From assembly GCA_904502095.1 (NCBI GenBank), contig CAJGDG010000002.1, positions 128-64,127 of the forward strand: 64,000 nt of DNA, in the 5' to 3' direction. A program made the translations under genes and the position numbers. A model generated the notes under the pieces. The model saw nothing but the letters and a program-made list of their open reading frames with translations, did not search any database and was not told the origin of the DNA. Shown piece after piece: positions 1 through 15,596 of this stretch; within the stretch, counting starts at the first letter, position 1; each line of letters opens with the position of its first letter. Source of the stretch: an uncultured Alphaproteobacteria bacterium. Lineage in GTDB: Bacteria > Pseudomonadota > Alphaproteobacteria > Rs-D84.

Positions 1-164
1 TTTGTGTTCGCGTTGCGAACATGGACCTAGGTTCCACGGTCAAGCCGTGGAATGACAGAGTTTTTTTGTTTATTTACCCAGGTTCCACAGGGCACCCGTG
101 GAATGACAGAGTTTTTTGTTTGTTCGCCTAGGTTCCACAGGGCACCCGTGGAATGACAGAGTTT
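1..164. repeat. Left copy of a ~165-bp direct repeat (partner 3235-3397); contains three tandem palindromic units at 26-60, 77-111 and 127-161
   Basis: TTTGTGTTCGCGTTGCGAACAT followed by three units CCYAGGTTCCAC-loop-GTGGAATGACAGAG. The same order recurs at 3235-3397 with about 9 differences. The copy is cut by the window edge. Confidence 0.9.
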
Positions 165-192
165 AATGAATTATTCATTCACTAACCACTTG
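165..192. repeat. Left arm of an inverted repeat flanking the two-gene cassette (partner 3072-3102); a third, direct copy lies at 3550-3575
   Basis: The reverse complement of AATGAATTATTCATTCACTAACCACTTG matches CAAGTGGTTAGTG(ATTAGTG)AATGAATTATT at 3072-3102. Confidence 0.75.
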
Positions 193-282
193 CCCCGGCG
201 CAGCACAGCAAAAATCCTGCCACTACTAACCACTTGTACTGACCGCTAATATAATTTTTTCCTTTTATATTTTTTTTATTTA

Positions 283-291
283 TGATAAAAT
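283..291 (+). promoter_or_regulatory. Extended -10 promoter element TGATAAAAT
   Basis: TTTATGATAAAAT lies 18 nt upstream of the ATG at 310. It belongs to the recurring TGATAnAAT motif family in this window. Confidence 0.45.
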
Positions 292-309
292 TTATCCATA
301 CAGAGAGAT

Positions 310-2283
310 ATGAAATTATTTAAGCGATTTTTATTGTTGGTTTTCTGCGCACTGCCGACCTTGGCGGTGGGGCAGGTTGCAACCACCGCGGGCAGTAATT
401 TAACCGCATGGAACGGTAATGCGGGGTCTACAAATAACAATAATTGGAACCAATTAATGAACAATCGTACCGGCGCGGCCACTGCGGCCAAGGCTGATTT
501 CGGCAACTGTAATTCATTGATTTTACGCTGTGCGCAACCAAAATGTGCTGCGTGTACAACAATGGAATTGGCGAAACCTGTTGTGTCGGGTTGTGTAAAT
601 TCGAACAAAGATTGTAAAAAACACGGTGATGATTTGATTGAATTTATCGCTGCGCAAATTGTTGCAAGTGCCGCACAAAAACAACAGGCGGCTGAATTGG
701 CGGCGTCCCAGGCCGCGGCCCAGGCGGCGGCTGCGCAAAATTCCCAACAAATGCAACAAATGCAAATGCAGATGCAGCAAATGCAACAGCAAATGCAACA
801 ACAAAACGCCAATCAGATGGCGCAAATGCAGGCTGCATTGGATGAACAAAAACAATTGGTTGCCCAGGCCCAGGCCGAAGCGGCCGCCGCCCAACAGGCC
901 AAGGCGGATGCAGAAAACGCCAAATCCGCGGCACCGGTTGGGGTGACCGCTGCGCAACAGAATGCGATTAACGCCGGGATCAGTGAAGATGTTTTATTCC
1001 GTCAACAGGCCAGTGGCGAAATCTTGACTGCGATTGAAAATGCAGAGGTGCAGTTAAAGGCGATGGAAACATCGTTAAAATCGTTGTTCGATTATGCGGG
1101 CTGTGATTCGCGTGGTGGAAACTGTGTTGGGCCAAAGCGGGTCAAGGTTTTTAAAGACAAAGCGCGCCCGATTTTTGACAATTTTGATAATGTCGCAGAC
1201 GAATTGTATGAAGCGTTGGAAACGGCGCTGATGCTGGGCGTTGATGTCAGCGATGTTTTAATGATGTTAAATGGTTCGTGTAATCGTTGGGGTCGTTATA
1301 TGTGTCAATCAGATGGTATTTGCACCGACGAAAACAAAGGTTGTACGAAGGGACAACCGTATCATGAGGTTGCAAAATATGATAGCAGCTCTTGTGTTGG
1401 TGGTAAGTCTGTGGCCATCGGCAATGTTAGAGGAAACATGGAATGTCGTGAAAAAACTGCTGTCCCTCCCCAGGACGATATTCGTTGCACAATGATTGGA
1501 TACTTTTCGGCTGATGATACCGATGAGGTTCGTCGTGAATGGATTGATGAAAATTACGAAGGTGACCGTATGGTGCGAATTGGGTGTGCGTCTTCGGCGT
1601 TGGATTCTATTGGCATCTTTTCGCGCCGCCGTGGCAAAAAGGCCAGTACGCTTGATTTGGATACGTTGGAACGCATTTTGGAACAAGACGCAACGGATAT
1701 GGGGGGCAGCAGATATAACGATAAAACCGTGCGCGACAATGAAAAATTACAATACTGTGCATTAAGTGTTGATGGATACAGAATTTTAAACAAAGCTATT
1801 AATACAAAAAAATTTAGTCAAAGCGATGTTTGTGTTGAAACGGCTGATTTGCGTAGCGATGTGCGAAATGGAAATTGGGTTCGCGCACTGGACAGTGATT
1901 CTGGGCGCTATTTAAACCATATCCCCGAAGCGTATGACAAAGGCTCATGCGAAAAGTTGGGAGAAAATCAAGCCTGTTGGGAAGAGGGGACCAAAAAGTG
2001 TTGGGTGCGTAAATGTAATAGCGGTAATTGTAGCGTTGCCACTGCGTGTACGGGGGAATGTGGAACCAATGAATGTGGTATGTGGAACTATTGGAATGGC
2101 GGAACGGTTGTGACGGTTGGTGCCAACGATAACGAGAACAAATGTAAAATGCATGGACATATATGGTATAGTAAGGATCAGCTAGCAGCAAATAAATTTA
2201 CAAACCAAGAAGCGTGCTGTAAGCAAAATGGAAACGGTCATTTTGATACTAATTTGGGGAAGTGCGTGCCTGCAAGCGGATGA
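310..2283 (+). CDS. Secreted Cys-rich protein with a Gln/Ala-rich coiled-coil region (hypothetical, 657 aa)
   Basis: Signal peptide MKLFKRFLLLVFCALPTLAVG; 31 Cys; low-complexity QQMQQMQMQMQQMQQQMQQQ; GAGAG SD upstream; no enzyme motif recognised. Confidence 0.75.
   Translation: MKLFKRFLLLVFCALPTLAVGQVATTAGSNLTAWNGNAGSTNNNNWNQLMNNRTGAATAAKADFGNCNSLILRCAQPKCAACTTMELAKPVVSGCVNSNKDCKKHGDDLIEFIAAQIVASAAQKQQAAELAASQAAAQAAAAQNSQQMQQMQMQMQQMQQQMQQQNANQMAQMQAALDEQKQLVAQAQAEAAAAQQAKADAENAKSAAPVGVTAAQQNAINAGISEDVLFRQQASGEILTAIENAEVQLKAMETSLKSLFDYAGCDSRGGNCVGPKRVKVFKDKARPIFDNFDNVADELYEALETALMLGVDVSDVLMMLNGSCNRWGRYMCQSDGICTDENKGCTKGQPYHEVAKYDSSSCVGGKSVAIGNVRGNMECREKTAVPPQDDIRCTMIGYFSADDTDEVRREWIDENYEGDRMVRIGCASSALDSIGIFSRRRGKKASTLDLDTLERILEQDATDMGGSRYNDKTVRDNEKLQYCALSVDGYRILNKAINTKKFSQSDVCVETADLRSDVRNGNWVRALDSDSGRYLNHIPEAYDKGSCEKLGENQACWEEGTKKCWVRKCNSGNCSVATACTGECGTNECGMWNYWNGGTVVTVGANDNENKCKMHGHIWYSKDQLAANKFTNQEACCKQNGNGHFDTNLGKCVPASG
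745..806 (+). repeat. Imperfect CAAATG/CAGATG microsatellite-like tract inside the CDS (encodes the QM repeats)
   Basis: caacaaatgcaacaaatgcaaatgcagatgcagcaaatgcaacagcaaatgcaacaacaa. Confidence 0.8.
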
Positions 2284-2287
2284 AACA

Positions 2288-3031
2288 ATGGTTAATAAAA
2301 AAAGTATCTTTTATGGTTTGATTGTGGCGGTGTTTACGGCTGTGTTTGTTATGCCGTCTTTTGCCGCAGATGACTCCTGTATGAGCGAAGATAAGGATAT
2401 GATTGCCGCGCCGTTCGCAATGTGTTCAACACATGCCTATAATATCGGTAAGACGGAAAATCCCGATTCCGCTGACCGCGCACTGATGAAGGAAGTTATT
2501 GGTTTGAAAACAACCTTTTTTACCCAGCAATTGTACAAGCAATATGATCAACTGGAATCGATGGTGCGTCGATTGAAAACGCAATTAAAAAAGGCGGTGT
2601 TAACGAATAATCTGAAAGCAGCCGGCGCAAAATCTGAAAAAGATGATGACAGTGGTTCTTCTTATTCTGCGTCCAAGGACGATTATGTTCAGATTTCTGG
2701 TGCAAAAGATTGTACAACTTCGTGGTCGAAAAAAGAGATTTTCGATTGTTTGGCGGGAAATTATATTCTTATCAAAAATGGCGACAAGTCAACTGCATAC
2801 AAAAAGCAACTGAAAACGGATTATAATTTGGCGTGTAAAAATGTTGCTGCAGACGATAAATGTTCGGATACATATAAATGTAAGAAATCTATCAGCGGCA
2901 ATAACTTTTCTGAATGTTTGAATGATTTATATAGTCTTATTGTTGCCGGTAAAGAAGCCGCCGCAGATACGGAAGCAAAGCGAAATAACCCGTTTCAACA
3001 TCTGATGAATAATAATAATAGTGGAAGCTAA
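2288..3031 (+). CDS. Secreted 8-Cys hypothetical protein (247 aa)
   Basis: In-frame ATG 5 nt after the upstream stop; signal peptide MVNKKSIFYGLIVAVFTAVFVMPSFAA; followed by a terminator. Confidence 0.7.
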   Translation: MVNKKSIFYGLIVAVFTAVFVMPSFAADDSCMSEDKDMIAAPFAMCSTHAYNIGKTENPDSADRALMKEVIGLKTTFFTQQLYKQYDQLESMVRRLKTQLKKAVLTNNLKAAGAKSEKDDDSGSSYSASKDDYVQISGAKDCTTSWSKKEIFDCLAGNYILIKNGDKSTAYKKQLKTDYNLACKNVAADDKCSDTYKCKKSISGNNFSECLNDLYSLIVAGKEAAADTEAKRNNPFQHLMNNNNSGS

Positions 3032-3033
3032 AC

Positions 3034-3059
3034 AAAAAACCGGCCCCGCCGGTTTTTTT
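3034..3059 (+). terminator. Rho-independent terminator
   Basis: AAAAAACCGGC-CCC-GCCGGTTTTTTT immediately after the stop at 3031. Confidence 0.8.
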
Positions 3060-3071
3060 ATTCCCAAGGGA

Positions 3072-3102
3072 CAAGTGGTTAGTGATTAGTGAATGAATTA
3101 TT
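3072..3102. repeat. Right arm of the cassette-flanking inverted repeat
   Basis: CAAGTGGTTAGTGATTAGTGAATGAATTATT is the reverse complement of 165-192 with a 7-nt internal duplication. Confidence 0.75.
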
Positions 3103-3234
3103 TTAAATATTAACATAATAAAAAAAATATTGCCGCTCTTTGTCATCCTGTGGCTTGACCACAGGACCCAGGTTATATTTCAATCCCTTTGTCATCCTGT
3201 GGCTTGACCACAGGACCCAGGTTATTTATGCAAA

Positions 3235-3397
3235 TTTGTGTTCGCGTTGCGAACATAGACCTGGGTTCCACGGTCAAGCCGTGGAATGACAGAGTTTTTT
3301 GTTTATTCACCTAGGTTCCGCAGGGCACCCGTGGAATGACAGAGTTTTTTGTTTATTCACCTAGGTTCCACAGGGCACCCGTGGAATGACAGAGTTT
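3235..3397. repeat. Right copy of the ~165-bp direct repeat
   Basis: Collinear with 1-164, with about 9 differences including one T indel. Confidence 0.9.
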
Positions 3398-3447
3398 TTA
3401 AGTTTTTTTACAAAAAAATTTTAAAACTATATATGTAAAGTTCTCTC

Positions 3448-3483
3448 TTTTGTCATCCTGTGGTCAAGCCACAGGATGACAAA
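3448..3483. repeat. Perfect palindrome unit
   Basis: TTTTGTCATCCTGTGG-TCAAGC-CACAGGATGACAAA; 13-bp or longer stem. Confidence 0.9.
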
Positions 3484-3576
3484 TTGATTGATATATGACC
3501 TGGGTATGAAAGTCAAGCCACAGGATGACAAAGAGCGGCAATATTTTTTATAATTATTTCACCACTAACCACTGGT

Positions 3577-4845
3577 TTATTCCTGATTTAACTCGTGCCG
3601 CAGTTTGTCCCAGTATTCCAGACGCTTTTTTATTTCACGTTCGAATCCGCGCTCGACCGGGATGTAATAACGTTCGCGACCCATCGATTCGGGAAAACAA
3701 TTTTGACCAGAAAAACTGTTCGGTGTGTCGGGGTCGTATATGTACCCGTCGTTATAGCCCATCTGTTTCATCATCTTGGTCGGGGCATTTAATATGTTTT
3801 TAGGGGGCATCAATGAACCTGTGGCACGCGCCGCCGCGTATGCGGCCTTTTGCGCTTTGTAATTGCCAATGCTTTTTGGCGCAGTGCCCAGATATATTAC
3901 CAATTCAGTCAAGGCCAAATCGCCTTCGGGACTGCCGATTCGTTCGTATAGTTGCCACGCAGACAGCGCAACCTGCATCGCGTTCGGATCAGCCAGACCA
4001 ATGTCTTCCATCGCAAATCGCGCCAGACGACGAAACAGGTACATTGGGTCTTGGCCCGATGTCATCATGCGCGCCGTCCAATATAATGCCGCATCTGTGT
4101 CGCTGGCACGCAGTGATTTATGAACCGCAGAAATTAAATTATAATGTTCGTCACCGTGACGGTCTGATAATGGCGCGCGCTTTTGTATCACTGAATCTAA
4201 ATCTTCAGATGTCAAAGGTTGTTTGAATTTCGCGTTTGTTAAATACTCGACCGTGTTTAATAAAAAACGCGCGTCGCCGTCCGCCATCTGGGCCAAGTGT
4301 GTGCGGGCAGATGTTTCCAACGGTAATTTTTTGCCGGTGAATTCTTCGGCGCGCGCAATCAATGTCAGTAAATCTTCGGTAGATAATGATGTCAGTACGC
4401 CAATGTGACAGCGCGATAATAACGCGTTGTTTAAATTAAAACTGGGGTTTTCAGTGGTCGCACCAATAAATACAACTGTGCCATCTTCTAAATAGGGCAG
4501 CAGTGTGTCCTGTTGTGTCTTGTTAAAGCGATGAATTTCATCAATGAATAATAATGTATTGCGACCAATGTCGCGATTCATGCGCGCTGCGTCCATCGCC
4601 TTTTTTATGTCGGATGTGCCAGAAAAAACCGCAGACATCGGAACAAAGTCCATGTCAACAGAATTTGCCAATGCACGCGCAATCGTCGTCTTGCCACAGC
4701 CGGGCGGACCCCATAATATCAAATTAGATAATTTTTGCCCGTCAATCATACGGCGAACCAGGCCGTTTTCGCCCAGCAATGTCGTTTGACCAACAATGTC
4801 GTCTATGGTCCCAGGACGCATTAAATCTGCAAGTGGTCGTGTCAT
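3577..4845 (-). CDS. rarA: Replication-associated recombination protein A (AAA+ ATPase RarA/MgsA)
   Basis: Walker A GPPGCGKTT; LFIDEIHRFNK; C-terminal MgsA signature HYNLISAVHKSLRASDTDAALYW. Confidence 0.92.
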   Translation of the reverse strand: MTRPLADLMRPGTIDDIVGQTTLLGENGLVRRMIDGQKLSNLILWGPPGCGKTTIARALANSVDMDFVPMSAVFSGTSDIKKAMDAARMNRDIGRNTLLFIDEIHRFNKTQQDTLLPYLEDGTVVFIGATTENPSFNLNNALLSRCHIGVLTSLSTEDLLTLIARAEEFTGKKLPLETSARTHLAQMADGDARFLLNTVEYLTNAKFKQPLTSEDLDSVIQKRAPLSDRHGDEHYNLISAVHKSLRASDTDAALYWTARMMTSGQDPMYLFRRLARFAMEDIGLADPNAMQVALSAWQLYERIGSPEGDLALTELVIYLGTAPKSIGNYKAQKAAYAAARATGSLMPPKNILNAPTKMMKQMGYNDGYIYDPDTPNSFSGQNCFPESMGRERYYIPVERGFEREIKKRLEYWDKLRHELNQE

Positions 4846-7283: not shown

Positions 7284-9261
7284 TATCCATGATAAACGGT
7301 GGAAGAAATATAAAATAGATTTTGAAAAAATCGCCAATACGGCGGTTTCTGGCGTATACAAGAATTCTGAAGTGTCGATTGTTTTGGTCGATGATGATGA
7401 GATTAAGTCGATAAATCGTCAATATCGTGATATCGATAAACCGACAAATGTTCTGTCTTTTGAATTGGGCGATGATGTTCTGTTGGGGGATATTTATATA
7501 TCTTTGGATACTGTCGTGCGTGAAGCCCGCAATATGAATATTTCTGTGCACGACCATGTGGCGCATATGGTGGTGCATGGGGTGCTGCATCTGTTGGGAT
7601 ATGACCATATTACTGATGAAGAGGCCGCTGTTATGGAATTAAAAGAAACCAAGATTTTGAAAAAGATGAAAATAAAAAATCCATACGAAGAAGATGTAAT
7701 TGCCTGTGTTGATGGAGATTGTTGCCCAGGCGCTAAAACAATTGCGTGGTTAAAAAATATAAAAGTTCGTGAAAACGGATTTTTGCAATATTTGCTGTAC
7801 GGCGTATTTGGTGCTGTTGCGTCATTGGGGTTTGCGCCTTTTTATCAATGGTGGTGGACGCTGATTGGGGTTGCTGGTGCGTATTGGTTGACGGTGCGAA
7901 ACAAAAAGATTGGCGGTTTGTTGCACAGCTTTTTACGCGTGTTTCCGTTTGGGGCAATGTATGGGTTGGCTATGTTTTGGTGGGTCTTGCATTCTATTTA
8001 TGTTGCGCCAGAACTGGCGGCACAATATGCAATATGGACAGTACCCGGTGTGTTAGGATTGATGTTGGCAAGCGGGGTTATTTTTTCGTGGCCATTTGTC
8101 GCAATCGCAAATAAAAAAGCATCGCCTGCGTCACGAATATGGTTGTTCGCATGTGTCTGGGTGTTGGTTTTATGGATGCGCGAATGGGTGTTTACAGGGT
8201 TTCCGTGGAATCCAATTGCAAATATAATGATGCCATTTCCGGCGATTGCTAATTCTATGTCTGTTTGGGGGGCGTTGGGATTAAGTTTTGTGCTTGTTGG
8301 ATTAATTGCTGCTGTTGTTGAATTGTTGCGTAATATAAAAAGTAAATCTGTGTGGTGTGTTTTGTTGTTGTTCGTTGGGTTTGCTGTATACGGCGGATTT
8401 GCTGGTGTACATAATATGGCGTTGTCGGATAATGGGGCAGGTACAGATGCGACAATGTTGCGTATTGTTCAGCCTGCATCATCGCAATCACAAAAAGCAA
8501 CCCATAACAGAGCCGAAGCTTTACAACGTGCACAGTTTAACTTGAAATCATTAATGGATTTGGCAAGTGTTCCGGGTGAATATGATATTGTCATTATGCC
8601 TGAAACAACATATCCGTTTGTTGTTATGGATACAGATATTATTGATATGGCGATTGATTTGAAAAAGCCAGTTGTTTTTGGGGCAAATACAGTTGGCGCA
8701 GGTGGTGTTTATAATTCTATGGTGATTTCCTCGGAAAACGGCCGTATAGAAAGAATTTATAGCAAGTCGCATTTGGTCCCATTTGGCGAATATCGTCCAT
8801 TTGGTATATTGCCTGCGCCCGTTAATTTAGCGCGTGGAAATGGACCTGATTTGATTGGTGTCGAAGGTTTTGTTTTTGCGCCAGCTGTTTGTTATGAAAT
8901 TATATTTTCTGATTCATTGTTGCCGGAAAATTCAGGCGAAGTTCACGCGGTTGTAAATATTACAAATGACAACTGGTTTGGCAATACCCCTGGGGTTTAT
9001 CAGCATTTAGATATGGTGCGCAGATATGCGATTGAATCTGGTTTGCCTGTTGTGCGCGCTAATTATTCTGGTATCAGTGCATTTGTTGCGTCCGATGGTG
9101 AAATAATATCGTCTTTGCCCGTTGGTCAAGCTGGTGTGTTGGACGGTTTTGTTTGGGGGGCACATAAAACAATTTATCGCGCAATTGGTTTAAATATGTG
9201 GATGATAATTATATTAATTGTGTCGATTTTTGGTGTGCGTGCCTTTTCAAAAAAAGAATAA
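7267..9261 (+). CDS. ybeY/lnt: Fusion of endoribonuclease YbeY (N-terminal ~140 aa) and apolipoprotein N-acyltransferase Lnt
   Basis: YbeY zinc motif HMVVHGVLHLLGYDH, then polytopic Lnt with catalytic E (MPETT), K (KSHLVPFGEY) and C (VCYEIIF) in one uninterrupted frame. Start at MKVYVD with AGGGA SD. Confidence 0.85.
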   Translation: MKVYVDIHDKRWKKYKIDFEKIANTAVSGVYKNSEVSIVLVDDDEIKSINRQYRDIDKPTNVLSFELGDDVLLGDIYISLDTVVREARNMNISVHDHVAHMVVHGVLHLLGYDHITDEEAAVMELKETKILKKMKIKNPYEEDVIACVDGDCCPGAKTIAWLKNIKVRENGFLQYLLYGVFGAVASLGFAPFYQWWWTLIGVAGAYWLTVRNKKIGGLLHSFLRVFPFGAMYGLAMFWWVLHSIYVAPELAAQYAIWTVPGVLGLMLASGVIFSWPFVAIANKKASPASRIWLFACVWVLVLWMREWVFTGFPWNPIANIMMPFPAIANSMSVWGALGLSFVLVGLIAAVVELLRNIKSKSVWCVLLLFVGFAVYGGFAGVHNMALSDNGAGTDATMLRIVQPASSQSQKATHNRAEALQRAQFNLKSLMDLASVPGEYDIVIMPETTYPFVVMDTDIIDMAIDLKKPVVFGANTVGAGGVYNSMVISSENGRIERIYSKSHLVPFGEYRPFGILPAPVNLARGNGPDLIGVEGFVFAPAVCYEIIFSDSLLPENSGEVHAVVNITNDNWFGNTPGVYQHLDMVRRYAIESGLPVVRANYSGISAFVASDGEIISSLPVGQAGVLDGFVWGAHKTIYRAIGLNMWMIIILIVSIFGVRAFSKKE

Positions 9262-9264
9262 ATT

Positions 9265-9471
9265 TTATTTTTTTAGGGCTTGTTGTAAAATCCAAACGCG
9301 TATTGTGGATGATAAATTGCGATTGCCAGGACACGTGGAATCTATTTCATTTATAATCGATGCAATCGAACGATTCTGCTGTATAGCAAGTTTTTTCAGT
9401 TCGTTTATAAATTCGGTTTCCAATGTAATACTGGTTTGGTGTCCCGATAAAGATACAGATATTTTTTTCAT
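9265..9471 (-). CDS. Ribbon-helix-helix protein (PF13467/RHH_4-like)
   Basis: ISVSLSGHQTSITLETEFINELKKLA...NLSSTIRVWIL matches the S.rL.GH.TS..LE..FW..L...A......NLSSA.R pattern. Confidence 0.7.
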   Translation of the reverse strand: MKKISVSLSGHQTSITLETEFINELKKLAIQQNRSIASIINEIDSTCPGNRNLSSTIRVWILQQALKK

Positions 9472-12053: not shown

Positions 12054-12670
12054 TTATGTAAAACCAGATATTTTGGTGCGGTTGTACCCGCTTTGTTTTT
12101 ATGCTGATAACGTGTTTGTATGATTTCCATTTCTGGAATTATAGCAGACAGGTTGGTTTGTTTTAGTTGTTCCAGAATCCAATCAAAATATTCCCAGTGG
12201 TCTGTGCCGATAATAATTTCGCCGTTATCGGTTAAATATTGCGATAAAGTATTTAAAAAATCTGCAGATAACAAGCGGCGTTTTTCATGTCTGGCTTTTG
12301 GCCATGGGTCGGGATGTAAGACCCAGATTTGTTCAAATTTCGAATCGGTTTTACGCAAGAAGTCACGAACATCATCTGCCCAAATTCGGATGTTTTTATA
12401 TTCGTCCAAAACAAGGTTGTTTTTTTCGTCTGTTATTGCAGACAGCAAACTTGCCACGCCGTTCATAAAGGGTTCGGCGCCAATGATGATTTTTTCTGGG
12501 TGTGTCGCGGCCAATTCGCGCACATGTTCGCCGGCACCAAAGCCGATTTCCAGTATGTCGCCACCTGTTGGCTTTAATGTGGGCAATACTTCGTCAATCA
12601 ATGTTTGTTGACGGGTGGATAATTTTTTGCCGTGACGGCGACCAAATGTTCTTATTTCTTGTTTTTCCAT
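12050..12670 (-). CDS. trmB: tRNA (guanine46-N7)-methyltransferase
   Basis: SAM motif ILEIGFGAGEH and HPDPWPKARHEKRRL. Start set at MEKQEIRTFGRR. Confidence 0.88.
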   Translation of the reverse strand: MEKQEIRTFGRRHGKKLSTRQQTLIDEVLPTLKPTGGDILEIGFGAGEHVRELAATHPEKIIIGAEPFMNGVASLLSAITDEKNNLVLDEYKNIRIWADDVRDFLRKTDSKFEQIWVLHPDPWPKARHEKRRLLSADFLNTLSQYLTDNGEIIIGTDHWEYFDWILEQLKQTNLSAIIPEMEIIQTRYQHKNKAGTTAPKYLVLHN

Positions 12671-13276: not shown

Positions 13277-14862
13277 GAAATGGTTTGTCAAAAGATTTAA
13301 TCGTACGCGTTTTGGGCGGCGCACCAAAATATACATTGGATGAATTAGAAGCAAAATTCCCAGCACGCAATTTGCCAGAAGGTGCAATGGTGACGCGTGT
13401 TGCACCAAGCCCGACTGGTTTTATGCATTTGGGTACATTGTATCAAATGATGATTGCAAAAAAATTAGCACAACAATCAGATGGTGTTTTTATGTTGCGT
13501 ATTGAAGATACTGATACAAAACGTGAAGTGCAGGGCGCAGTTGATGTTATTTTAAAATGTGCAGATGCGTTCGGGTTGCAACCAGACGAAGGCCCGACAT
13601 ATGGTGGCGAATATGGTTCTTATTATCAATCGCAACGCAAAGATATTTATCATTCTGTGGTGGCAGACTTGTTGGCGCGTGGATTGGCGTATCCTTGTTT
13701 CTTGTCAGCAGAAGATATGGAAAAAATTCGCGAAAATCAAAAGGCAGCAGGTTTTGCAACAGGTATCTATGGCGAATTTGCACGTGATAGGGATTTGACC
13801 GAAGAAGATATTATCGCACATTTAGATAATGGTGAAGTGCCATCGATTCGTTTGTATTCAATGGGCAATAAAGAAAATAAAATATTTTATAATGATAAGG
13901 TTCGTGGACGTTTGGCGTTCCCAGAAAACGAAGAAGATATTGTTTTGATTAAATCAAATGATGGGTTGCCAACATATCATTTTGCACATTTGTGTGATGA
14001 CCATTTTATGCATACGACATTGGTACAACGTGGTGAAGAGTGGTTGTCTTCATTAAATTTACATTTGCAATTATTCCGTATGATGGGATGGCAAAATCCA
14101 GAATATATCCATGTTGCAACAATTAACAAACTGGATGAACAAACTGGTAATTCGCGCAAACTGTCCAAACGTACAGACCCAGAAGCAAATACAATGCATT
14201 ATTTGACAGCTGGTTGGCCAATAGAAGCCGTATTGAATTACCTGTACAATATTGTTGCGTCTGGTTTTGAAGAAGAAAAAAATAAAAAGCCAGATACAAC
14301 TATTTGGAATTATCCATTAAGAGTAAAAAAAATTCCAACAAGCAGTGCGTTGTTTAATACTGATAAACTGGAATGGTGGGCGAAAGAATTTATTGGTTCG
14401 TTGCCGGTGCCAGAATTGGTTGCACGTGTGGTCGCATGGGCAAATGAATATGGAACGGATGTCAACAAAATGCAGGTGGCGGATGTTCAATATCTGACAG
14501 GCGTGTTGGGTATCGAACGCGATAATCCAAAGCGTGTGCGTAAAGACTTTATTACTTGGTCCCAGACATTGGAAAATGTTGCGTTCTTCTGGGATGAATT
14601 GTTTGTTCCAAATACAGAATATGAATTTAATAGGGACGTGTTGCATGAATTTTTGGTAACATATAACGAATCGGATGATAAAGACACTTGGTGGGCTAAA
14701 ATTGTAGCGGTTGCAGAAAAATGTGGTGTTAAAAATGGCGATGTTGCAATGAATCTGCGTGTTGCGTTATCTGGCCGTACAAATACCCCAGACTTGTATT
14801 CAATAATGACTGTTATGGGTGGTGAACGCGTAATTAAACGAATCGAGGGAGCGATAAAATGA
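13273..14862 (+). CDS. gltX: Glutamyl-tRNA synthetase
   Basis: Class I motifs PSPTGFMHLGT (HIGH-like) and KLSKR (KMSKS). ATGA overlap with the GNAT stop. Confidence 0.88.
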   Translation: MRNGLSKDLIVRVLGGAPKYTLDELEAKFPARNLPEGAMVTRVAPSPTGFMHLGTLYQMMIAKKLAQQSDGVFMLRIEDTDTKREVQGAVDVILKCADAFGLQPDEGPTYGGEYGSYYQSQRKDIYHSVVADLLARGLAYPCFLSAEDMEKIRENQKAAGFATGIYGEFARDRDLTEEDIIAHLDNGEVPSIRLYSMGNKENKIFYNDKVRGRLAFPENEEDIVLIKSNDGLPTYHFAHLCDDHFMHTTLVQRGEEWLSSLNLHLQLFRMMGWQNPEYIHVATINKLDEQTGNSRKLSKRTDPEANTMHYLTAGWPIEAVLNYLYNIVASGFEEEKNKKPDTTIWNYPLRVKKIPTSSALFNTDKLEWWAKEFIGSLPVPELVARVVAWANEYGTDVNKMQVADVQYLTGVLGIERDNPKRVRKDFITWSQTLENVAFFWDELFVPNTEYEFNRDVLHEFLVTYNESDDKDTWWAKIVAVAEKCGVKNGDVAMNLRVALSGRTNTPDLYSIMTVMGGERVIKRIEGAIK

Positions 14863-15596
14863 CCAAGGAAAAAAGAGCCAGAATCAAGGCCGTAAAAAAA
14901 GACGAGCATGGTTCAAAGTTGTTAAAGGTTTTGCGTGCAACAGGGTTGTTCCGTTGGGAAAAGCCAAGTACCAAAGCAGAAGAATCGGTTAATATTTTAA
15001 CACAGGGTATTGGTATCGGGTTGGCGGTCGCAGCGTTAACATTATTGGTTGTGTTTGCGGGGCTGAAAGGTGACCCATGGGCAATCGTTTCGTGTGCGAT
15101 TTTTGGCGTGACGATGATAACTTTGTATTTTGGTTCAACAATGTGTCATGCAACAATCGGTAAAAAGCACGAGTGTTTCTTTGAAGTTTGGGACAGCGTC
15201 GCAATTTATGCCCTGATTGCAGGAACCTATACGCCGTTTTTGTTAGTAAATCTGCGTGGTTTTATTGGCTGGACTGTGTTTGCGATTTTGTGGGGAATTG
15301 TATTGTTTGGTTCTTATATGAAAATTCGCAATCCAAAACAACAGCCAAAATGGATGGTGGCATTATATGTTGCGATGGGGTGGACGCTGTTATTTATTTT
15401 GCCGGCAATGATTCGTAATATTCCAGTTCGTGGTCTGTGGTTTATCTTAGCCGGTGGGCTGGCGTATACAATCGGTGTAATATTTTATCTGTGGCGCAGG
15501 ATGAAGTTTTCACACGCGGTATGGCATTTATTCGTAATTGGCGGCAGTGTGTGTTTCTTTTTTGCTGTTTTGTTTGGTTGTATTTTTGATAAATGA
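14859..15596 (+). CDS. Hemolysin III / PAQR family membrane protein
   Basis: Seven predicted TM helices; C-terminal HAVWHLFVIGGSVCFF signature; ATGA overlap with the gltX stop. Confidence 0.8.
   Translation: MTKEKRARIKAVKKDEHGSKLLKVLRATGLFRWEKPSTKAEESVNILTQGIGIGLAVAALTLLVVFAGLKGDPWAIVSCAIFGVTMITLYFGSTMCHATIGKKHECFFEVWDSVAIYALIAGTYTPFLLVNLRGFIGWTVFAILWGIVLFGSYMKIRNPKQQPKWMVALYVAMGWTLLFILPAMIRNIPVRGLWFILAGGLAYTIGVIFYLWRRMKFSHAVWHLFVIGGSVCFFFAVLFGCIFDK

Follow-up and report, generated by a model that had tools for sequence, protein, structure and literature searches.

We analyzed a 64,000-nucleotide stretch of DNA (the window) from an uncultured alphaproteobacterium and conclude that the repeats on either side of two adjacent secreted-protein genes at its left end, ORF1 and ORF2, are very probably arrays of Ssn-related motifs (SRMs) for which the genome also encodes a cognate SsnA-like nuclease. 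By the sequence comparisons, the gene pair belongs to the core of the genus, and the arrays would be recent insertions beside it. The metagenome-assembled genome (MAG), here labeled G000, has a size of 846 kb in 32 contigs and is placed in Candidatus Enterousia, order Rs-D84 (PMC12306168). The window comprises G000:C2:128-64127. It starts inside the left array (AL), and the 127 nt of contig to its left are repeat. The right array (AR) lies between ORF2 and rarA, and a sister array, A19b, lies on contig C19. G0xx and L0xx are working labels for other genomes and loci in the genus comparison; coordinates given without contig or locus refer to the window.

The SRM/Ssn system consists of NTS repeats and the GIY-YIG nuclease SsnA, which is specific for single-stranded DNA (ssDNA) (Chenal et al. 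2025, Nat Commun 16:2388, PMC11893778). In Neisseria, SsnA cuts NTS-bearing ssDNA, NTS-gene-NTS DNA transforms less well, and clusters of NTS are found beside membrane-protein genes (PMC11893778). BLAST and mismatch scans of G000 revealed one family of hairpin repeats with about 68 units in 16 arrays on 11 contigs, all intergenic and seven of them at contig ends. The oriented core unit of about 31–36 nt is composed of a head TGTCATYC, an 8-bp stem, a loop CTTGA and a tail CCYRGG, and occurs in the variants A1 (TTCCACGG/CCGTGGAA), A2, B (TCCTGTGG/CCACAGGA) and Bg (TCCTGGGG/CCCCAGGA). Together with three accessory modules, i.e., the palindrome L (TGTTCGC-GTT-GCGAACA), the AT-rich S (...AAAACTATATATGTAAAGTTCT) and T (...CACCACTAACCACT), the hairpins form mosaics that differ from site to site. 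The 11-mer CACTAACCACT of module T has nine copies in the genome, with 0.4 expected. Folded as ssDNA, single hairpins are stable (−9.1, −8.7 and −6.8 kcal/mol).

The family is not private to this locus and extends into the genus. The census gave generic units at 16 unrelated intergenic sites, one of the two outcomes that the sequence-only reading had named as refuting it. A free-stem pattern, TGTCATYCNNNGGCTTGACCNNNGRAY, was found in 18 of 61 genus genomes with 2–39 copies each, and a control with the reversed pattern had no match in the 61 genomes. A comparison of 22 distinct genus variants showed changes in both partners of each of the four variable stem pairs, with an invariant head TGTCAT. 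Stem pairing was retained in 96% of cells across these variants, compared with 84.7% after shuffling (0/500).

For assignment of the units we used the published SRM pattern HGTCWYN(0-2)YYVSBRHN(0-5)WNVSBRGN(0-2)RNCYNB (PMC11893778). It matched 27 times in the genome, compared with a mean of 0.75 and a maximum of four matches in 20 dinucleotide-type shuffles (about 36-fold), and 24 of the 27 matches were units of the hairpin family described here. Head and tail agree with those of the Neisseria NTS (CGTCATTCCCGCGMAVGCGGGAATCYRG), as is seen best for unit A1: the NTS reads CGTCATTCC-CGCG-MAV-GCGGGAAT-CYRG, and the unit here TGTCATTCC-ACGG-CTTGA-CCGTGGAAC-CTAG. Both systems moreover have oriented, intergenic and clustered hairpins, an SRM-ssnA-SRM layout, arrays on either side of envelope-protein genes and a symbiont-type host. 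In contrast to the NTS, the units described here have a different stem and loop (CTTGA) and join modules L, S and T into long nested palindromes. The hosts differ as well, the present one being an uncultured 0.85-Mb gut alphaproteobacterium of the order Rs-D84 in which the system is predicted from sequence.

A candidate for the cognate enzyme is encoded at C24:119-412. This 98-aa protein has a single GIY-YIG domain (Pfam PF01541, 8.4e-17, residues 3-77) and no other domain, which places it within the size range given for the SRM system (single-domain GIY-YIG proteins < 150 aa), and among solved structures it is nearest to small GIY-YIG proteins of the UPF0213 type. The sequence-only reading of this DNA had noted that no recombinase was visible; this holds inside the window, but not genome-wide if the SsnA-like nuclease gene on C24 is considered. 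SRMs are located on both sides of this gene within 500 bp (C24:7-114 and 435-556), and the same SRM-gene-SRM layout was found by coordinates in six more genomes (G019, G063, G015, G064, G021 and G067). Close orthologues of the nuclease (at least 70% identity) were present in 10 of the 18 hairpin-bearing genomes and in none of the 43 other genus genomes (Fisher p = 4.9e-7). More distant small GIY-YIG genes (45–59% identity) occur in genomes without the CTTGA-loop family, which suggests several nuclease/motif pairs in the genus.

By analogy with Neisseria, the predicted SsnA-like nuclease would cut the hairpins in ssDNA, and an SRM-gene-SRM layout would lower the replacement of flanked genes by transforming DNA. 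The arrays may also act as dispersed homology for RecA. Genes for RecA, ComEC and DprA are all present in the genome.

Some observations weigh against assigning the repeats and the nuclease to the SRM/Ssn system. Only A1 and Bg match the strict SRM pattern, whereas B and A2 are off at one position. Two hairpin-rich genomes, G004 and G050, had no GIY-YIG homologue at E ≤ 1e-5, for which incompleteness of these MAGs may be the cause. Any protective or transformation-modulating role of the arrays is borrowed by analogy from Neisseria, and ComEC and DprA occur in non-competent bacteria too. Finally, arrays in G000 were enriched beside genes for Cys-rich exported proteins (8/40 vs 24/796, odds ratio 8, p = 6e-5), but this was not reproduced in G019 (1/20 vs 14/116). 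We hence dropped a preference of the arrays for such genes as a general claim.

The gene pair between the arrays consists of ORF1 (310-2283, plus strand), which encodes an exported protein of 657 aa with 31 Cys, a hydrophobic N-terminus and a Gln/Ala/Met-rich helical tract, and ORF2 (2288-3031, plus strand), which starts 4 nt past the ORF1 stop codon and encodes an exported protein of 247 aa with 8 Cys and likewise a hydrophobic N-terminus. Cysteine counts and N-termini thus agree with the earlier description of two signal-peptide-type proteins. ORF1 has no Pfam family and is genus-restricted: of 24 genus genomes, 23 have one copy and the remaining one, without a match, is 64% complete, and no copy was found in 16 further genomes of the order. 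ORF2 always follows ORF1. Out of 43 mapped loci, 13 have ftsK directly 5′ of ORF1, and this is the commonest context. The recurrent gene order is ftsK > ORF1 > ORF2 > (two outer-membrane barrel genes, fabD) < rarA, and a direct adjacency of ORF2 and rarA is common to this genome, L032, L038 and L044.

Contig C6 of G000 carries ftsK, after which come two SRMs and a gene, here labeled geneZ, that is represented by its 5′ half. A search for contig-end overlaps gave no left neighbor of C2. This neighbor was later found via L096, a contig of an independent assembly, which shows the 3′ end of geneZ, a terminator, the full AL (500 nt) and ORF1. From C6 and L096 together, the local order is therefore ftsK - SRM - geneZ - AL - ORF1 - ORF2 - AR - rarA. 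We conclude that ORF1-ORF2 is conserved and vertically inherited, and forms an operon for envelope or secreted proteins at the commonest position in the genus.

The arrays vary between species and strains. In L038 and L044 the spacer between ORF2 and rarA is made up of one bidirectional terminator and no array, and in L032 it contains a T′ module and a palindrome of a different family. A19b is absent from a strain of 97–98% identity, where a single terminator is found instead, and in GCA_045645945.1 the site has another module order. Compared with the empty site, the filled A19b site has a duplicated T-run, similar to the 8-bp repeat at AR described below. Arrays are thus present or absent, and reordered, between strains of 97–99% identity. 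From the array-free sites in other species and strains we conclude that the arrays are recent insertions, which would have entered terminator-proximal spacers on either side of the gene pair. AR would have inserted inside a T palindrome with an 8-bp duplication at its ends. Since L031 and G021 carry arrays on both sides of the pair and an adjoining nuclease gene, the element may have resided in the ORF1-ORF2 neighborhood for a long time.

All repeats that had been described at this locus before are present in the sequence, and several are larger than described; they can be read as the parts of two separate arrays. AL has a full length of about 500 nt and begins after the geneZ terminator (L096:1900-2450). 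Its right part (1-164) consists of module L (1-24) and three hairpin units that repeat with a period of 50 and have their SRM heads on the minus strand, i.e., A1 (25-60) and A2 (75-111 and 125-161). T modules on the plus strand, the boundary modules of the mosaic arrays, follow at 165-192 (AATGAATTATTCATTCACTAACCACTTG) and 221-237 (CACTACTAACCACTTGT), the latter being a fourth copy of the motif; species that lack hairpin arrays likewise have a T module upstream of ORF1. The promoter-like site of ORF1 (264-291, plus strand; TTTATA-16-TAAAAT, TG-extended) precedes a ribosome-binding site AGAGAGA and is conserved in L031, L032 and L038. Downstream of ORF2, a bidirectional intrinsic terminator (AAAAAACCGGCCCCGCCGGTTTTTT, 3034-3058) serves ORF2 and, prior to insertion of the array, would have served rarA as well. 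Its hairpin is nearly identical in L031 and has array-free equivalents in L038 and L044. The promoter-like element and terminator ascribed to the gene pair were thus both found, and both are conserved in other species.

The modules of AR (3065-3575) form a nested palindrome in the order T′-B B-L A1 A2 A2 S-B* B′-T. From left to right, the array contains T′ (3068-3102), an AT-rich spacer, two B units (3138-3176 and 3187-3225), L (3235-3258), A1 (3259-3308), two A2 units (3309-3358 and 3359-3397), S (3398-3447), B* (3448-3486), which is a head-to-head palindrome, B′ (3497-3533) and T (3550-3575). The array is bordered by an 8-bp direct repeat, TTTATTCC, at 3057-3064 and 3576-3583, which is a possible target-site duplication; the right copy overlaps the stop codon of rarA/mgsA (AAA+ ATPase; 3577-4845, minus strand), which is convergent with ORF2. 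As ssDNA, the B-L-A1 part (3174-3307) folds with −32.8 kcal/mol (z = −8.9).

The direct repeat 1-164/3235-3397 is real, with seven mismatches and one indel, and extends further to the left (C2:32-291 vs C2:3266-3524, 94.3% over 261 nt). It reflects the module order B-B-L-A-A-A that both arrays share. The T motif at 165-192 has an inverted counterpart at 3072-3102 (91% over 22 nt, 76% over 33 nt) and a direct copy at 3550-3575, and the 32-bp inverted repeat closing 3122-3549 is perfect (32/32) and extends to arms of 97 nt with 89% identity (3119-3215/3456-3552). The inverted pair, however, does not bracket a cassette but is the inner terminus, i.e., the T module, of each of the two arrays. AL and AR are 94% identical to each other, compared with 96–99% identity of either to arrays on C19, C23 and C15. 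As they are not especially alike and are built from the same modules, the apparent nested direct and inverted repeats are the look of two independent mosaic arrays. A general rule by which a split T palindrome encloses every array was rejected; this applies to AR only, as the full AL in L096 is without a T′ arm at its outer edge. The observation itself is hence confirmed, and its earlier interpretation is partly supported.

Unexpectedly, we found two hybrid arrays in ERZ27234997, an independent ENA assembly of the same species with 99.4–99.9% identity to G000. On contig L096, ORF2 is followed by hybrid H1 and the sequence from C19:11517 downward, i.e., the genes that come after A19b in G000. 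On another contig, L098, the genes before A19b (a 257-aa gene, dnaA and dprA) are linked via hybrid H2 to rarA. H1 consists of the left part of AR and the right part of A19b, H2 of the left part of A19b and the right part of AR. A four-way alignment placed both switches within one stretch of 93 nt (3371-3463) that is identical in AR and A19b, with differing bases directly on either side. In G000, AR and A19b are in direct orientation and 63.9 kb apart, the 3′ ends of C2 and C19 being joined by a 141-nt overlap that L098 confirms. The ERZ27234997 junctions would therefore correspond to the deletion junction and the circle (or tandem) junction of a 64-kb block.

Two explanations of these hybrids have to be weighed. 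Tentatively, the SRM arrays may be active recombination hot spots, where a crossover between AR and A19b excises or tandemly duplicates the 64-kb block (rarA ... dnaN, dprA, dnaA) in some strains; this would add to the SRM assignment of the arrays and does not exclude it. It is consistent with the presence of both reciprocal hybrids in the same assembly, with a 93-nt identical stretch that is shorter than the assembler k = 141, with two ERZ27234997 contigs that tile the block as a loop save for a 277-nt gap in dnaN, and with the parental junctions being present in G000 and GCA_045645945.1. Yet the block carries essential genes, and GC skew is positive from C6 via C2 into C19, so that no replication origin or terminus is visible in it; a cell with a stable 64-kb replicon and a deleted chromosome therefore does not look viable. 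Moreover, the hybrids were found in one assembly only, and a metagenome scan for copies of the junctions returned only the source contigs of this genome itself.

It is likewise possible, with the same reserve, that H1 and H2 are assembly chimeras formed in the de Bruijn graph at the meeting point of two near-identical arrays. Reciprocal mis-pairing is the expected outcome of a wrongly resolved two-in/two-out repeat node, arrays break assemblies throughout the genus, and the apparent non-viability of a biological product also points to an artifact. This is in contrast to the length of the identical stretch: with distinguishing bases on both sides of 93 nt, k ≥ 99 needs real reads across the join. 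In addition, the k141 assembly of G000 itself threaded both parental arrays.

We regard it as unlikely that the arrays drive reciprocal homologous exchange across tens of kilobases and that some strains hold the 64-kb block of essential genes (rarA through dnaA) in the form of a sub-genomic circle or a tandem amplification beside a deleted chromosome. If true, a free gut bacterium would have a multipartite genome resembling that of plant mitochondria, made at a 93-nt stretch of an Ssn array. Direct repeats give rise to subgenomic circles in the reduced genome of Portiera endosymbionts; unlike these, the possible 64-kb circle here is seen in one short-read assembly. In Neisseria, genes located between dispersed dRS3 hairpin repeats form minimal mobile elements in which the repeats serve as homology for exchange, whereas the flanked genes described here are not swapped between strains. 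The GC skew of +0.1 to +0.3 is uniform over at least 137 kb of rc(C6)-C2-rc(C19), where rc denotes the reverse complement, with dnaA and dnaN included. The replication origin is therefore not beside dnaA in this genome.

Another reading, to which we give a small chance, is that the arrays act mainly as RNA, i.e., as stabilizers in 3′ untranslated regions, as terminators or as small RNAs like WsnRNA46, for highly expressed flanking genes. Arrays are positioned just 3′ of terminators and 5′ of promoters, and the long B-L-A palindrome matched the Rfam family WsnRNA46 (RF02625) on both strands with 36 and 25 bits (E 9e-6). The score of 36.0 bits is, however, below the gathering threshold of 65.3, the arrays are placed after intrinsic terminators, and the empty sites in sister strains and species show that they are dispensable. 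WsnRNA46 is a palindrome of about 135–150 nt in which a central spacer separates two hairpins, TGTCATCC...GGAxCCAG, that stand head-to-head. Over its full length the model aligns with 3174-3307, the central part being unrelated, and its match is accounted for by shared SRM hairpins, which is what it most likely reflects. Wolbachia is an SRM-rich genus (PMC11893778), and its small RNA 46 locus looks like an SRM pair, a link not mentioned in the Ssn paper (PMC11893778). Units of about 110–135 nt with two head-to-head SRMs around L were found at 3174-3307 in the window and at C6:1734-1845, C18:321-432, C24:3246-3353 and L031:3703-3790.

A model based on the sequence-only reading takes ORF1-ORF2 for a mobile or invertible cassette that MITE-like repeats bracket as in a composite transposon, with excision or inversion between AL and AR. 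We consider this very improbable. The gene pair does occur in other neighborhoods, i.e., after lnt in G006 and L034 and in an otherwise colinear C19-like block in G016, and SRM arrays on both sides of it recur in L031 and G021, as described above. However, the species with a relocated pair have no arrays beside it (8-nt spacer in G006), and synteny of the pair in relatives is largely, though not fully, retained. In most genomes it is single-copy, and here it has the majority ftsK...rarA position. Further points against this model are the identity of AL and AR, which are no closer to each other than to arrays elsewhere, and the 8-bp duplication, which borders AR alone and not the whole cassette. 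Recombination by the direct repeats had been predicted, and with RecA present AL and AR are substrates in principle, their longest common exact run being 56–66 nt; but the one apparent exchange involves another partner array 64 kb away, and no deletion or inversion of 193-3234 was found among three other assemblies. The N-terminal 340 residues of ORF1 are 75–88% identical to L031, and the DNA (about 75% identity) diverges in step with its flanks, without an allele swap. An ORF1 allele replacement between conserved flanks was accordingly rejected, as these values agree with ordinary divergence. A mobile or invertible cassette is thus not supported.

The hairpins can hardly be REP/BIME elements spread by RAYT (IS200/IS605-type Y1 transposase): like those of E. 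coli and Pseudomonas they are oriented imperfect extragenic palindromes in mosaic arrays of both orientations, all intergenic, and substrates for rearrangement, but a Pfam search for Y1_Tnp (PF01797), positive in control genomes, gave no hit in this genome and one in 61 genus genomes, uncorrelated with hairpin counts, the head is GTCATYC and not GTAG, and the enzyme here is a GIY-YIG nuclease, so that this model was ruled out for want of a Y1 transposase.

Some further observations concern the genes of the locus. ORF1 and ORF2 are in one open frame of 742–865 aa in seven distant species (G001, G002, G007, G009, G012, G018 and G020), and hence represent one protein that is split here or fused there. 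Imperfect tandem repeats of 6, 12 and 21 bp (699-805; CAAATG, CAGCAAATGCAA) underlie the Gln/Ala/Met tract of ORF1 and may be prone to slippage. geneZ encodes an exported, Cys-rich protein of about 1100 aa with the end ...CYIGSxKVGSYGxxIETSME (G000 C6:1-1575, minus strand; L096:2-1870). In this MAG only its 5′ half is present, as the contig breaks within the gene, and its location relative to ORF1-ORF2 varies (upstream in G010, downstream in L031). L044 was considered as a natural case of an S-end next to the cassette and rejected, its matches being 41–54% identical and probably paralogous members of a dispersed family. Cys-rich proteins with hydrophobic N-termini account for about 40 of 836 predicted genes in G000, with up to 1958 aa and 95 Cys, which is a large share of a 0.85-Mb genome. 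An exact-protein look-up for the gene at 14859-15596 found no record.

Other repeats were seen as well. In G019, the hairpin-richest genome sampled, 15 of 16 SRM loci are at contig ends, and several adjoin genes of an exported family starting with ...ASIVSRGFLDE, which has relatives in G000 at C19:497-1552 and C20:468-734. A second palindromic family with the core CGTAGTGTACAnnnnGCTACATGAG in arms of 44–50 nt is found in G000 at the 3′ ends of C1, C3 and C27 and at C23:6575-6600, i.e., also at contig ends in this MAG, and elsewhere at L012:2198-2320 and 7296-7406 and at L038:9750-9830; two copies flank the block of ORF1, ORF2 and barrel gene in G024. In L032, different hairpin families occupy the same sites (12463-12560 and 9300-9420), i.e., a long palindrome TTTGTCATTGCGAGCG...CAATCC and GTCACCCCAGCGAAGGCTGGGGTCC, which likewise points to several nuclease/motif pairs in the genus.

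Taken as SRM arrays with an SsnA-like nuclease, the repeats extend the SRM/SsnA system, described in 2025, to Candidatus Enterousia, with a genus-wide test of the co-occurrence of nuclease and hairpins, and they connect WsnRNA46 of Rfam with pairs of SRM hairpins. The secreted-protein genes between the arrays are core and not cargo. If the hybrids of AR and A19b are real, they would be direct evidence of SRM arrays reshaping a reduced genome on the time scale of strains.

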